Shown here piece after piece: positions 12,433 to 22,261 of a stretch of 64,000 nucleotides of DNA (position 1 is its first letter; each line of letters begins with the position of its first letter). Under the pieces are notes generated by a model. The model had not been told where the DNA came from and did not search any database. It was given only the letters and a program-made list of their open reading frames with translations. The position numbers and the translations under genes are program-made. Source of the stretch: an uncultured Spirochaetota bacterium (GTDB taxonomy: Bacteria > Spirochaetota > Brevinematia > Brevinematales > JAOACQ01). The stretch spans positions 96,001 through 160,000 of the forward strand of contig CAVYGN010000001.1 in NCBI GenBank assembly GCA_963768055.1, read 5' to 3'.

Positions 12433-12537
12433 AAGAACCCCCCTTCGGTGCTTCCTATCCGTAGAAGCGCCTTAAAAAGAATATAGAGGGCAAGGATAAA
12501 TGTCAAAATCTAATAACGGCTGATCTTAAAATCACAG

Positions 12538-12579
12538 ATGTCATTTCGAGGTTAACAGCTGGGATGCTCGAAATGACAT
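12538..12579. repeat. REP-like palindrome (ATGTCATTTCGAG / CTCGAAATGACAT)
   Basis: Perfect 13-bp inverted repeat with 16-nt loop; half-sites recur at 11742, 26920 and 50122. Confidence 0.75.
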
Positions 12580-13469: not shown

Positions 13470-13844
13470 TTAAACCACAGATTTACACAGATTGATACGG
13501 ATTAATTATTGTAAGGAATGAGAATTTCTCTGTGAAATCCATATAAAATTAGAGAATAAATTGTGATTTACCCCAAAGAGTCATAAGGTATTATTTTACA
13601 TGTAGAAACTGAGGCACGAGAGTATATAAGATGATGTTCATCAATTAAATTATACTATTAAATAAATCAAACCTTAATAAAAATGGTTTAAAGAAATGTT
13701 AAAAAAATAAAATTTATATTAAAATAAAACTCATTTATTCAGTGTGTCGAGGACCGGGTAGATTCCCCAGTGGCAGGGGCATGAGATTCCCCACCTTTTC
13801 CTGAAAAATACCGTTCTTGATTTTAGAGAGAAATCATAAAACTT

Positions 13845-14591
13845 TCAAATAGTTTTCCCTTCCTTCCGGAAAGATTTTCCATCTTTGGATTTTACCAGGA
13901 TTTTAATTGAGCCTGAAACAAGGCGGTCAAGCATAGCCCCTCCAATCACAGGATCAGGGAAGATTGCCAGCCAGTCCTCCGGAGGCCGGTTGCTTGTCAG
14001 AATAATGGACCTGTTTCCAAGCCTTTCATCGACAATCCGGTATAGGTATTCCGTTTCTTCATTGTCGAGTTTTTTAAATCCGAAATCGTCTATTATCAGG
14101 AGGTCTGTTTTAATACACTTTCTGAATAGAGTATTCTTAAACATAAGCTTTTCGCTTTTCAAGTCTTCAAGAAGAACCGCGGCTTTCTTGAAAAGAACTG
14201 TGTTTCCTCTTCTGCAGGCCTCATGGCCGACTGATTTTGCAATGCATGTTTTACCTATGCCGGGAGGCCCGGCGATGACAACAAACTGTCTCATATCCAT
14301 GAAACGGCAGGACGCGATTTCACGAATAAGCCTTGAAGGGATAGCGCTCTCATTGAAATTAAAATCAAACCCCTCGAAAGTGTTTTCCTGGCCGAACTTC
14401 GCTTCTCTCAGCCTCTTTTTGAGCATGTTATTATCCCTCTGGCATAATTCATCCTGAACTAACAAAGAGAAAAATTCTCCATAGTCCAGGTTTGATTCTT
14501 GAGCCTCCCTGATCCGCATAGGAAGGTTGAATAGCATCCCAGGAAGCTTTAACCTCCTTAAGTTTGCCTCAAGCTGATTCTGATGTTCCAT
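13845..14591 (-). CDS. istB: IS21 helper ATPase IstB
   Basis: GPPGIGKT, LLIIDDFG, LTSNR, AMLDRL motifs. Confidence 0.95.
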   Translation of the reverse strand: MEHQNQLEANLRRLKLPGMLFNLPMRIREAQESNLDYGEFFSLLVQDELCQRDNNMLKKRLREAKFGQENTFEGFDFNFNESAIPSRLIREIASCRFMDMRQFVVIAGPPGIGKTCIAKSVGHEACRRGNTVLFKKAAVLLEDLKSEKLMFKNTLFRKCIKTDLLIIDDFGFKKLDNEETEYLYRIVDERLGNRSIILTSNRPPEDWLAIFPDPVIGGAMLDRLVSGSIKILVKSKDGKSFRKEGKTI

Positions 14592-14609
14592 ATTTCCTCC
14601 TCATTATCT

Positions 14610-16151
14610 CTATTGAAAGTAATAGCTGCCGTCCCTGGTCATTTCAGACCCTTCTTCTGAAATTTCAAACAGGGTGTCCTGTTTATCCTTTCCTTCATTT
14701 TCCATCCAGCTTTTGAATAGTTTGGGATCGGTTATTTTTGCCGATATTGCTCTTTCACAGACTTTATTAAAGTATTCTTCTTTCGAGAATGTTTCCATTA
14801 CACTTAAGAACCCCAGGGCCCTCCGGCAATTCAGATTAGCATGAACAGCAAGGATTTGAAAGATCAACTGGTATGCGGCTTCTCCGTATTTCCTCGACTG
14901 GTCTAATAAATACTTGGGGTATCCCCCGGATAGCATCTCCCTTGTATTCTCCGGAAAATCAGTCTTTTCATATGCTGCATGTCCTCTTGGTACGACAAAT
15001 TCCCGGATAAGTTTGTACTGGAAGAAGATCTTCACTAAATTGCCGGTTCTCCTGACAAAGACTTCCTCTCCACGATACCTGGGAGGCAGGGAATACCTCT
15101 TTTTCTCGAACTGGACAAATTGGTCCGGGTGTACCTTGGCCTTTTTCCATACGGGAGTCTTAAACCTTTCTTCAGGAAGCTTCTTAAGCAGGGGCTTCTC
15201 TATCGTTTCAAATACCTCTATTGGTTTCAAACCTGTTGTTCCATGGTTCCTCATCCCGTATTCATACCTGCACCATTCCAGAGCTTTGATGTTTAATTCC
15301 TTTAACGAGGCTCCGGGATTAAGGGCTTTAAGTTTTCTGAAAAGCTCTCTGGCAACAGGGACCATTCTCTCTATCTTGGCTTTATCCTTTGGTTTCCTTA
15401 CCCTGCAAGGATCAAGAAAAGTATTGTAATACTCCGCATAATCAGCATATGCCTGATTATATTTAGGATCGTAAAGGTCCGGTGATATGATGCCGGTTTT
15501 CAGATTGTCCAGGGATATTCTTACAGGCACACCGCCGTAAAACTCCAGCATATCCACATTGCTTTCAACGAATGATTCCTGGTTTTGTGAATAGACATAT
15601 TGAACAAATGGCAGCCTTGAACTCGACATTATTCCGATAAAAGACTGCACGATCTTGTTGTGCCCCAGGTATTCCATTGTGCCGGCCCTGCCGTAGTCAA
15701 GCTGGATCTCCTGACCAGGGTTAGTTTCAATCCGGATGGTTTCCTTTAATTCTTTAGCTGTAAGGCCGCTCTTTATCGAGAATCTCTTGAAACTTGTATA
15801 GCTTATGTCCAGATTATGCCTTATACAGACAACTTCAAAGGCTGTCTTGGGTTTCATTCCGTTTTTCGGGTCATTTATGAGCCCGTACAGCTCATCTTTA
15901 TATCGTTCAAGTATGCTTGCCTTATTTTCATTTTTTGGAGGCCCTACAAAGGGGCGTTTCAGATGGAATTCTTCCCGGCTTATTGTTTCTCCCGCCTTTT
16001 CAAAGCCGTAATCGATAATTTTTTGAATCGCTAGTCGGACTGTTTTCCTATCCCTGTTTTCCTGTTCGGAAATTTCACTTATGCTTTGATCGGCTTTCCA
16101 TCGTCTGTAAATGTCATAGTAATCCTGTTCGTTCATAAATCTGTACCCCAT
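14610..16151 (-). CDS. istA: IS21 DDE transposase IstA
   Basis: ETNPGQEIQLDYG, FYGGVP...LDNLKT, KPKDKAKIER motifs. Confidence 0.95.
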   Translation of the reverse strand: MGYRFMNEQDYYDIYRRWKADQSISEISEQENRDRKTVRLAIQKIIDYGFEKAGETISREEFHLKRPFVGPPKNENKASILERYKDELYGLINDPKNGMKPKTAFEVVCIRHNLDISYTSFKRFSIKSGLTAKELKETIRIETNPGQEIQLDYGRAGTMEYLGHNKIVQSFIGIMSSSRLPFVQYVYSQNQESFVESNVDMLEFYGGVPVRISLDNLKTGIISPDLYDPKYNQAYADYAEYYNTFLDPCRVRKPKDKAKIERMVPVARELFRKLKALNPGASLKELNIKALEWCRYEYGMRNHGTTGLKPIEVFETIEKPLLKKLPEERFKTPVWKKAKVHPDQFVQFEKKRYSLPPRYRGEEVFVRRTGNLVKIFFQYKLIREFVVPRGHAAYEKTDFPENTREMLSGGYPKYLLDQSRKYGEAAYQLIFQILAVHANLNCRRALGFLSVMETFSKEEYFNKVCERAISAKITDPKLFKSWMENEGKDKQDTLFEISEEGSEMTRDGSYYFQ

Positions 16152-16582
16152 CCATTCCCCTCCGGTTTTTTCCGGAGAGTATGTTTGATTTTTTAGATTC
16201 TGAACAGGAAAAGGTGGGTGGGGAATCTCATGGCCCTGGATGCTAAAAAGTGGGGAATGTGGTGGCCCTGACCCTGGGGAATCTCATGGCCCTATTTTGC
16301 CTTTTTACTGGGGAATCTGGGTGGCCCCGGACAAGTGTCTACAATTCATAATTATGTTATGATTACACAGATATTTCCTTATATACCAATACATTACAAT
16401 TTTTAAACCCCGAAAAAAGATTTCTGGTTATAGCGTTATCTGAAATGACATCTGTGCAATCGGTGCAATCTGTGGTTCCAATCACAGGTAATCCTATAGG
16501 AAAATGGTTGTTAATTTACAAAACCTGGAAATCATTATATAATTTTCGTTATGAAAAATCTGAAATGGACAGGTTGTCGAAT

Positions 16583-20241: not shown

Positions 20242-20635
20242 ATAAACCTCCTTTGGATTTATCTTTATTTTACTAACGATTGTAACAGGAGTAATCAGGA
20301 ATATTTACTGATTTATGAATATCATGCTCAGGAAATTAAACTGATTTTTAATAAAAAGCGTAGGGGATTATTACTGATTGGCATTATTTACCGAATGAAT
20401 CGACCATCTTTATTAATTCATTTTTATTCTTTGAACCTGTTTTCTGATAAATATGATAAACATGTGTTTCGACGGTTTTATTCGAGATGAAAAGCTTGTC
20501 TGAAATTTCCTTATAACTGTATCTTTGTACCAGAAGTTCAAGTATATCGCATTCCCTTTTCGATATTTTATGTTTTTCAGCAAATTCTTTAATGGGGGTA
20601 ACAACATCATAGCTGTAACCAGGGGCAAAGTAGCT

Positions 20636-20795
20636 CTATATTGGGAATTTCTTAATAACTTCATTATATTTCTCTTGAGCCTCGACTATAGAAAGTTTTG
20701 AATATATCTCGAGCGTCTTTCGGCTCTCATGTCCGCTATAAGGTTGTATCAAAGCATCATCAATACCTTGCTTTTTGAGCCATGTGAAAAGGAAA
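20636..20795 (-). pseudogene. Tyrosine recombinase C-terminal fragment
   Basis: [34 protein letters not shown] resembles box II (xGH...catalytic Y); stop codon abuts the left IR. Confidence 0.8.
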
Positions 20796-20876
20796 GCCCG
20801 TGGATTGAAACTGGAAAGACACATATTCTATCGCCGCCCCCATCGTCGGGCCCCACGCGGGCCCGTGGATTGAAAC
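20796..20876 (+). CRISPR. CRISPR mini-array remnant, type I-C-like repeat
   Basis: Half repeat GCCCGTGGATTGAAAC (20796-20811), 33-nt spacer (20812-20844), full 32-nt repeat GTCGGGCCCCACGCGGGCCCGTGGATTGAAAC (20845-20876) with internal hairpin and ATTGAAAC end. Confidence 0.82.
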
Positions 20877-22261
20877 CATTAAGGTAATCCGAATGTTTAA
20901 TTCACGGAACATAAAAAAATCATCCGGTAGATTAATTGAAAGCTACTTTGCCCCTGGTTACAGCTATGATGTTGTTACCCCTAATGGGCAGTCCGGGCTC
21001 TTCCTTTATTTTTCCGGGCACTGTGATATATAGATAATAAGTATTAACGATAGTAAACAATAATATTCCATAACCGAGGGTATCCTGCTGGCCGATAAAT
21101 AAGACTGTCAGGCTGATCGTATAAATTTTATTCTGGATAATATAAATCAGATATGAAAATAGCAGGATTGAAGAGCTCAATAAAAACACAATGGATTTCA
21201 ATCGGTCTTTTTTAATAAAATAAGCTGAAATAAATATATTGAATGCCAGGCCGGCCAATAATAAAATGTAATAAATCGATAGAATGTAATTAAGCGATAC
21301 CCAGTTAACCGGTAAGGTTAATGATATGATTATTAGTATAAAAACAGCGGAAATGATCCTGAAGATAGCCCTGCTTTGACTTTTAAAAAAAAGATATATG
21401 AACAGGGCGTTTATAAGGAACAGTTTTGCATAAAGTAAAATTATTTGTATTTTAATAAGCAAATCGGCTGAAATATCCGAAAGAAAATTAAGAGTTTCTC
21501 CCCTGCCGACTAAATTCAGGGCCTGGATAAATGCAAATAAACTCAGTATCAAAAAAGCGTAATTTTTCCTGTTCCCGAGCAGTAAGAGTAAATTAAAGAT
21601 AAAAATCAGCAATAGCGCCCCGTCTATAATGCCTTCCCTGAATAATATCAGCCATCTATGTTCCCGGATGTCTTTTTCCAGTCCAATTAAAATAGTTTCC
21701 CTGATAATTTTGATATTCGAGTAATCAAAGATTTTTAAATATAATTTCAGCGGATTGAGATGATCCGGGACAGGCAGGATATTGCTTTTGTCGCGGTAAT
21801 TTACTTTCCACCTTGCGATGTAATTATAACCGTTTGAAAGTCCTATGTTATCGTTGATCCAGAAATAATAGGGGGAGAGGAGCGGAGGTATTAATAATGC
21901 TATGCTGTCCGCTTGATTCGAAGAAGACCCTTTTTCCGGGAGGATAATTTTTATATAAAACTCAGCGGAATCGTTTTCTTTATCATAATATGACGGATTA
22001 AGATCTTGATCAGGCCCGTCGGATATTTTAACTATCCCGTCTTTATTGAAGTCCCAGTGAGACAGGTCGAGCGTCCCTTTTTCAATAAAGGGCATTGTAT
22101 CAGCACTGGCGTTCCCGCAGAAAATCATAAGAACTAAAATAAAAGATAACTTAAATAATCCCATTTGAACCCGTCTGATTTTATCCCATAAGTAATCGAT
22201 CTATTTTAAAGAGTATGAATGGATTAATCAAATGTGTTCAGATATTGTAATATATAAAAGA

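Follow-up and report, generated by a model that had tools for sequence, protein, structure and literature searches.

A 387-bp insertion in a 64 000-nt stretch of DNA from an uncultured Spirochaetota bacterium (GenBank assembly GCA_963768055.1, contig CAVYGN010000001.1, positions 96 001 to 160 000; hereafter the window) is probably a Tn3-derived inverted-repeat miniature element (TIME), that is, a non-autonomous internal-deletion derivative of a TnpI-type Tn3-family transposon. This assignment was made because its terminal repeats belong to a widespread Tn3/TnpI-like clade. Between the repeats the element carries a fragment of a type I-C CRISPR array. An earlier note, made from the sequence alone, had predicted that a CRISPR-bearing transposon lay behind the element, and two loci of the same 3.69-Mb genome (two contigs, 94.75 % complete) bear this out. 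At one (T2), apparently a truncated parent, the array-to-repeat junction of the miniature element recurs without a mismatch (137/137) beside CRISPR-associated (cas) genes. The other (T1) is a complete sibling of 12.3 kb, in which a Tn3-family transposon encloses a whole I-C system.

The anatomy of the element was taken by direct reading (Table 1), which gave its length of 387 bp and perfect terminal arms of 41 bp with GGGG outermost (41/41 complementary); a repeat search lengthened the arms to 48 nt at 94 % identity. Only two arm copies were present in the window at up to 3 mismatches, compared with none in 100 shuffles. The left arm is touched by the stop codon (20636–20638, minus strand) of a tyrosine recombinase remnant, of which the last 52 codons (20639–20794, ending KFPI) persist. 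These keep the GH...Y region, while the N-terminal ~180 codons are deleted. The half CRISPR repeat that follows, GCCCGTGGATTGAAAC, recurs as the 3′ half of the full repeat at 20845–20876, a pair of matches seen in 0 of 100 shuffles. The full repeat folds with a 7-bp stem, a 5-nt loop and an 11-nt tail ending ATTGAAAC; the half repeat retains the tail and part of one stem arm and has no hairpin. Open frames inside the element comprised a 62-aa recombinase remnant and chance frames, with no transposase gene, and no Rfam family matched 20400–21200. The arms, TAATG duplication, recombinase tail, half repeat, spacer and repeat described in the earlier note were all recovered, position for position. 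Two other annotations were considered and rejected. The 64-nt trailer is not the 5′ end of tnpA, as TnpA proteins of relatives start MKRNWELDELIEHFT-like and the trailer frame is unlike them. A start of the remnant inside the half repeat, suggested by a BLAST extension, was discarded because alignment puts the true start of homology at FLFTW.

The element is a genuine insertion, as shown by two empty sites. The ortholog of the host gene in a sister species of the same genus (G022) and a paralog in the same genome (C2:2334-3217, where C2 is the contig that does not hold the window) each align to both flanks and lack exactly 392 bp (387+5), with the gap in the alignment beginning at the first TAATG. 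Excision in silico of the element and one TAATG gave a single open frame with a 7TMR-DISM_7TM and a GerE/LuxR domain, indicating that a membrane-bound 7TM/LuxR transcription regulator was disrupted. Its N-terminal part, with the 7TMR-DISM 7TM domain, now terminates within the right repeat, and its C-terminal 69 codons form the GerE/LuxR helix-turn-helix. A check of the junctions against reads, proposed in the earlier note, succeeded on one side: a 290-nt contig of public run X1, which is possibly the source sample and hence not independent, spans the left junction (20407–20696) with 0 differences, and the right junction is bridged by no listed public contig.

Table 1. Features of the 387-bp element and of the gene that it interrupts (window coordinates)
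Feature	Position	Strand	Evidence
Left copy of target-site duplication, TAATG (5 bp)	20590..20594	.	Direct reading; single-copy site in relatives
Left terminal inverted repeat IRA, 41 bp, GGGGTAACAACATCATAGCTGTAACCAGGGGCAAAGTAGCT, GGGG outer end	20595..20635	+	Architecture as in Tn3-family repeats of 62 public loci
3′ remnant of TnpI-like tyrosine recombinase (stop and last 52 codons)	20636..20794	-	tblastn, Pfam
Half CRISPR repeat (3′ 16 nt), GCCCGTGGATTGAAAC; deletion junction with recombinase remnant	20796..20811	+	Direct reading
Spacer, 33 nt	20812..20844	+	Direct reading
Full type I-C repeat, 32 nt	20845..20876	+	Identical to two trailer-proximal repeats of the 13-repeat C2 array
Array trailer, 64 nt, from last repeat to right inverted repeat	20877..20940	+	Within 137/137 identity to C2:1591411-1591547
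Right terminal inverted repeat IRA, 41 bp	20941..20981	-	Repeat search; C2 copy
Right copy of target-site duplication, TAATG (5 bp)	20982..20986	.	Direct reading; empty sites
Host gene split by the insertion	20384..22164	-	Profile matches; in silico excision

To place the terminal repeats, the 23-nt core of the arm, AGCTGTNACCAGGGGCAAAGTAG, was used as a query against public genomes. It matched 66 stretches in cyanobacteria, Bacillota, Chloroflexota, Bacteroidota, Actinomycetota and one archaeal bin, many of them at contig ends, as is typical of transposon ends. The core occurred 68 times in 62 loci; at a distance of exactly 16 nt on its outer side stood GGGG in 52 of these instances, GGCC in six and other letters in ten. 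Inverted pairs of cores 4 to 8 kb apart were present in four loci (L084, L061, L105 and L058), and a domain scan of the first three detected a DDE_Tnp_Tn3 transposase and a Phage_integrase-family recombinase in each interior, with merA or other cargo. The core is therefore common to loci encoding Tn3 transposases, in agreement with the Tn3-family origin that the earlier note had read from the GGGG ends.

The recombinase remnant gave a concordant result, and its description as a TnpI-like tail was confirmed by comparison with full-length recombinases encoded downstream of tnpA. By tblastn it was 65–78 % identical to recombinase C-termini in 21 of 80 metagenome loci (chosen for a TnpA 53–74 % identical to that of T1) and in 10 of the 62 genome loci. 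In the 13 loci inspected, the matched recombinases were mostly 232–243 aa, with four open frames reaching upstream to 271–346 aa; they lie directly downstream of tnpA, and in about 9–11 of the 13, on visual reading of the sequence, the terminal repeat comes next after the stop codon. The Pfam Phage_integrase profile aligned to the remnant over positions 133–168 of 172 (E 0.0013), below the cut-off, as befits a fragment. Homology at the DNA level to plasmid-borne recombinase genes stops at about 20795. One such plasmid, from Paenibacillus bovis, is annotated with a Tn3 family transposase and then a tyrosine-type recombinase, and the nearest annotated plasmid relatives (Paenibacillus, Priestia and Bacillus cereus, 64–66 %) have only generic names. 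Recombinases of this type are frequent in other phyla; among 401 genomes sampled from the phylum the remnant retrieved itself and a single 45 % match. The left 200 bp of the element are thus the ordinary tnpI-proximal end of a tyrosine-recombinase-type Tn3-family transposon, and cargo in the relatives lies at the other side, between the tnpA-distal repeat and tnpA. Relatives (L133, L138, L140, L150 and others) also have GTTCCG-N16-18-GGAAC palindromes ~100–130 nt upstream of tnpA, which are likely the TnpI resolution site; the miniature element lacks the region upstream of tnpA, and its trailer (20877–20940) contains a weaker look-alike, GTTCCG...TCGGA, on the minus strand.

Tn4430 and Tn5401 are TnpI-type Tn3-family transposons of Bacillus. 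Likened by description only, they have in common with the present elements a Tn3 DDE transposase, a tyrosine recombinase as resolvase, GGGG repeats of ~38–53 bp and 5-bp duplications. Tn4430 differs in gene order, with tnpI upstream of tnpA, whereas in the relatives examined here tnpA precedes tnpI and the tnpI stop abuts the repeat.

One further arm copy exists in the genome, at C2:1591411-1591451, making three copies of IRA in all. Identity to the miniature element extends over C2:1591411-1591547 (window 20845–20981), in which arm, 64-nt trailer and CRISPR repeat match at 137 of 137 positions, and C2 then leads on through a 13-repeat array and a leader to cas2, cas1c and cas4. The cas1c product scored over its cut-off (506 bits vs 385). 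The identical repeat therefore closes an array beside cas2, cas1c and cas4, and the assignment of the repeat to type I-C in the earlier note holds. The operon is severed just upstream of cas4, and 338 bp further on lies a 7.4-kb Tn3-family element with a serine resolvase. Neither a second arm of T2 nor another copy of the recombinase left in the miniature element was found in the genome. From its sequence, the C2 locus appears to be a truncated parent, a cousin of the donor rather than the direct donor as it stands.

The I-C system of T2 seems to be of local origin. Its Cas1 is 79 % and 75 % identical to the Cas1 of two genomes of the same family, and in a sister species the repeat of a chromosomal array is 91 % similar. 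The chromosomal I-C arrays of two relatives (G023 and G024) end in ordinary sequence without a transposon repeat. The recombinase type of the miniature element, in contrast, is all but missing from the sampled genomes of the phylum. Most simply, then, a resident I-C system would have been captured by a Tn3-family element arriving from elsewhere.

Several further features of the T2 locus were recorded. The 13-repeat array contains a duplicated repeat-spacer unit (C2:1591747-1591846), its spacers 8 and 9 being identical, and the G variant of the repeat in the miniature element is confined to the two trailer-proximal repeats of this array. In a 187-nt X1 contig mapping to window 20845–20964, spacer 11 of the C2 array runs straight into the last repeat and trailer, with spacer 12 omitted; this may reflect variation between strains or the path taken in assembly across 32-nt repeats that are identical. 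At C2:1591366-1591451, the IRA of T2 stands back to back with the GGGGTGAACGCAGAATTC...TAAG repeat of another transposon, T3, their outer ends 5 bp (AAATA) apart.

About 16 kb from T2, the 12.3-kb T1 (C2:1562899-1575163; L121:2900-15164) is bounded by perfect 38/38 inverted repeats of GGCCCC type, in the same length class as IRA and with the inner AAAGTA motif. From one end to the other it comprises a 245-nt trailer, a 5-repeat I-C array, cas2, cas1c, cas4, cas7/csd2, cas8c/csd1, cas5c, cas3, a diverged repeat, tnpI and tnpA. All seven cas genes scored over curated NCBIfam cut-offs, including the HD nuclease and helicase domains of Cas3. The tnpI gene encodes a 245-aa tyrosine recombinase, which in the 401-genome sample matched same-genus relatives only (38–45 %). 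TnpA is intact (1004 aa; NF033527, 903 bits vs a cut-off of 500), 69 % identical to that of a Marinisporobacter element (L105) and at most 74 % identical to metagenome relatives. The diverged repeat (29/38; C2:1571274) is a second repeat, with the cas3 start on one side and the tnpI stop on the other. By this layout, T1 looks like a 3.9-kb core transposon that took in an adjacent CRISPR-Cas locus by way of the perfect outer repeat. T1 and T2 carry two different I-C systems, as their Cas proteins are only 55–76 % identical (Cas2 76 %, Cas1 65 %, Cas4 55 %). The T1 repeat is 84–86 % like that of the miniature element by blastn.

These loci suggest the following history. In the parent, T2, a type I-C locus carried as cargo would have been flanked by one terminal repeat and by the tnpA-tnpI module, its array ending on the trailer side 64 nt short of the inner edge of this terminal repeat. 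A single deletion would then have fused tnpI, at about codon 180, to the middle of the second-last CRISPR repeat, with loss of tnpA and the greater part of tnpI, of the cas genes and the leader, and of every repeat except 1.5. The remnant would have been moved into the 7TM/LuxR gene, with duplication of TAATG, by a Tn3-family transposase acting in trans. The order of these events and the identity of the mobilizing transposase are inferred; the anatomy, the insertion as read from empty sites, the Tn3/TnpI membership, the identical cas-linked junction and the complete Tn3-plus-I-C sibling are observations.

A number of results weigh against this history. Searches of the genome with the 41-mer and with the whole element did not detect an intact parent with IRA at both ends, so the search for a full-length parent proposed in the earlier note yielded a truncated relative, T2, and a complete sibling, T1, and no intact transposon bounded by IRA. 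The present C2 copy is not the donor because the spacer of the miniature element is not in its array; this spacer was absent from all 12 spacers of array 1 and all 4 of array 2. IRA occurred in 0 of 34 other genomes of the order, which returned CRISPR-repeat matches only, plus a weak 34-nt match in one genome (G034). An exact 22-mer of IRA had 0 matches in metagenome contigs, and the repeat core and the repeat-gap-inverted-repeat pattern had 0 matches in viral contigs. By tblastn, neither the 62 genome loci that contain the repeat core nor the 80 metagenome loci have cas genes, the sole nearby array (L095) lying 4.4 kb outside the element. To date, the linkage of a Tn3-family transposon with CRISPR-Cas is confined to this one genome. 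A direct target duplication is lacking around T1, and its 5-bp flanks, TTGTA and TACAA, are reverse complements of each other; its right end cuts the tnpA of T3. No empty site for T1 was found, the only homologous flank (G020) being without synteny past the flanking gene. T1 may nevertheless plausibly move as one unit. The genome has four Tn3-type tnpA genes, three of them full-length, and IRA flanks none of these. The TnpA of T1 belongs to the right clade, though the repeats of T1 are different. With no resident transposase whose ends match IRA, present-day mobility of the miniature element is conjectural. A plasmid-borne parent could be missing from the assembly, given its completeness of 94.75 %.

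Some of the same results can be read as the outcome of a one-off recombination, in which an ordinary ~4-kb tnpA-tnpI transposon gained an 81-nt CRISPR fragment through illegitimate recombination or repair and a CRISPR-carrying transposon never existed. The C2 locus would then be the product of a second recombination, by way of the 32-nt repeat, between a resident array and a copy of the miniature element lying downstream of that array, which left the right repeat and 64 nt at the end of the array. The lack of cas genes in all 62 and all 80 related loci, the spacer missing from the C2 array and the heavy rearrangement of the C2 surroundings by at least five Tn3-family elements are consistent with such an event. 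However, it requires two rare events as well as an array as the source of the fragment, and it leaves T1 unexplained, in which a different repeat type and a different I-C system share the same layout. Cargo in this clade is also normally found between the tnpA-distal repeat and tnpA, the position expected of the CRISPR-Cas of T2. One-off recombination is thus considered unlikely, and descent from a CRISPR-bearing transposon is preferred.

Whether the mini-array retains any activity was considered separately. It has 1.5 repeats and no leader, where a working array would have a leader and at least two full repeats. Processing by the I-C Cas5 (Cas5c) needs the repeat hairpin. Lacking both a leader and, in the upstream repeat, this hairpin, the mini-array is presumably an inert scar. 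Were it instead a live mobile mini-array, its spacer would be transcribed from the host gene or the element and loaded into the I-C Cascade of T1 as a portable guide; the genome does encode a complete I-C effector, and the downstream repeat is intact with the expected hairpin. Among the public runs listed as carrying the sequence there was no RNA run. Promoter-like sites, however, numbered three against a shuffle mean of 3.0, the 16-nt upstream repeat would leave the 5′ end of the CRISPR RNA uncut, the T1 repeat differs from that of the element, and no target of the spacer was found: it had no other match longer than 14 nt in the genome and none in phage records. A live mini-array is accordingly given very little credence.

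Because T1 and T2, with different repeats and different I-C systems, both set the trailer end of the array against a transposon end, functional coupling of the array or its CRISPR RNAs to the transposon (for instance in target choice, exclusion of rivals or control of copy number) can be envisaged. It is held to be a slim prospect; if true, the Tn7 family would no longer be the only one with coupling of this kind. Slighter still is the chance of CRISPR-guided Tn3 transposition, in which the I-C system and its array would direct the transposase to spacer-matched targets, as in Tn7-like elements. The shared placement of the array trailer is the observation in its favour and may merely reflect the mode of capture. 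Against it, the spacers of both arrays and of the miniature element had no match longer than 18 nt in the genome, none near the insertion site (20590) and none in 182 fetched loci. T1 retains a Cas3 whose HD nuclease and helicase domains pass curated cut-offs and a full adaptation module, as in defence-type systems; no TnsC or TniQ-like adaptor genes were detected among the T1 open reading frames scanned; and the transposase clade is widespread without cas genes. Guidance by RNA, which the earlier note had offered for testing only, is not borne out, as no spacer matches near the insertion and Cas3 and the adaptation genes are kept. With a Tn3 DDE transposase, a Cas3 nuclease and no spacer match at the insertion, the elements depart from RNA-guided transposons on each point, and the CRISPR-Cas system would be plain defence cargo that does not guide transposition. 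Finally, an assembly chimera that misjoined a transposon end to a CRISPR array is almost certainly not the explanation: repeats and transposon ends often break or misjoin assemblies, and the right junction is unbridged, but the element is flanked by a precise 5-bp duplication, two independent homologous sites lack exactly 392 bp, the X1 contig crosses the left junction without a difference and the genome is in two large contigs.

The setting of T1 and T2 provided additional observations on Tn3-family elements and other insertions in this genome. Both lie in a nest of at least five Tn3-family elements (C2 ~1555400–1602200). Two members of the nest have serine resolvases, one of them carrying FGE-sulfatase and HigBA genes, and T3 encodes a 214-aa tyrosine recombinase, a transposase truncated by the right end of T1 and ~13 kb of metal/sulfur-related cargo. 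An IS21-family insertion sequence is present in the window at 13783–16200, with an IstB-like ATPase and a 513-aa transposase encoded on the minus strand (13845–14591 and 14610–16151). Its left end has nine copies in the genome, and a ~100-nt relic of that end lies in the T1 trailer, ~19 nt from the last CRISPR repeat; the T1 array was probably shortened by an insertion sequence. Two 40-nt members of the Tn3-type repeat family stand alone, with GGCC ends and in direct orientation, 6.2 kb apart (C2:1672315-1672354 and C2:1678519-1678558; L034:6316-6355 and 12520-12559). They lie in a defence island, upstream of a radical-SAM/HD gene and an AEP-TOTE/helicase gene, and are probably relics of transposon ends.

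The miniature element conforms to TIMEs as defined in two accounts (PMC4133298; Gomi and Yano 2026, PMC13367494). Like these, it is short, has no transposase gene and shares its ends with autonomous Tn3-family transposons; TIMEs there are likewise flanked by a 5-bp target duplication, are usually single-copy and are mobilized in trans. The TIMEs described there differ in being 244–262 bp long, compared with 387 bp here, and in belonging to Pseudomonas and enterobacterial Tn3 lineages with serine resolvases. Neither CRISPR sequence nor a tyrosine recombinase remnant is reported in them, and the interior of the present element is a deletion scar and not a conserved core. According to the first of these accounts, paired TIME ends can mobilize intervening DNA, as TIME-COMPs (PMC4133298), and by analogy this logic likely underlies T1.

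Tn7-like CRISPR-associated transposons similarly hold cas genes and arrays inside transposon ends, and Benler et al. 2021 (PMC8649781) note that complete CRISPR-Cas systems travel as cargo in a few Tn7-like elements. In contrast to them, the present elements have a Tn3 DDE transposase and no TnsB, TnsC or TniQ, keep Cas3 and the adaptation genes and give no hint of guided insertion. Tn3-family transposons are known with passengers such as metal-resistance genes and toxin-antitoxin pairs, and the neighbours in this genome and the public relatives carry ArsR, P-type ATPase, merA, HigBA or other genes between a terminal repeat and the transposition module; the arrangement here is alike, and differs in that the cargo is a complete adaptive immune system of ~8 kb. 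The full-text literature, searched mostly outside subscription journals and without supplements, yielded no report of CRISPR-Cas in a Tn3-family transposon and none of a miniature element that retains CRISPR sequence. TIMEs and cargo-bearing Tn3-family transposons are thus already known, and the pairing of Tn3 with CRISPR-Cas was not found described.

The miniature element is most likely inert apart from its knockout of the regulator, and as a fossil is of modest interest; the 12.3-kb T1 is the more interesting object. CRISPR-Cas systems move frequently between genomes, and the vehicles of this movement are mostly inferred. In the one genome considered here, a transposon of a replicative, plasmid-hopping type encloses a complete I-C system, with array, adaptation genes and Cas3, in perfect repeats; the whole 12.3-kb unit may transpose. 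The array-side repeat has worked as a transposon end, because the miniature derivative transposed with that repeat. These results add CRISPR-Cas to the known cargo of Tn3-family transposons and indicate that TIMEs can retain scars of the cargo of their parents. They offer a concrete, testable route for the horizontal spread of adaptive immunity.

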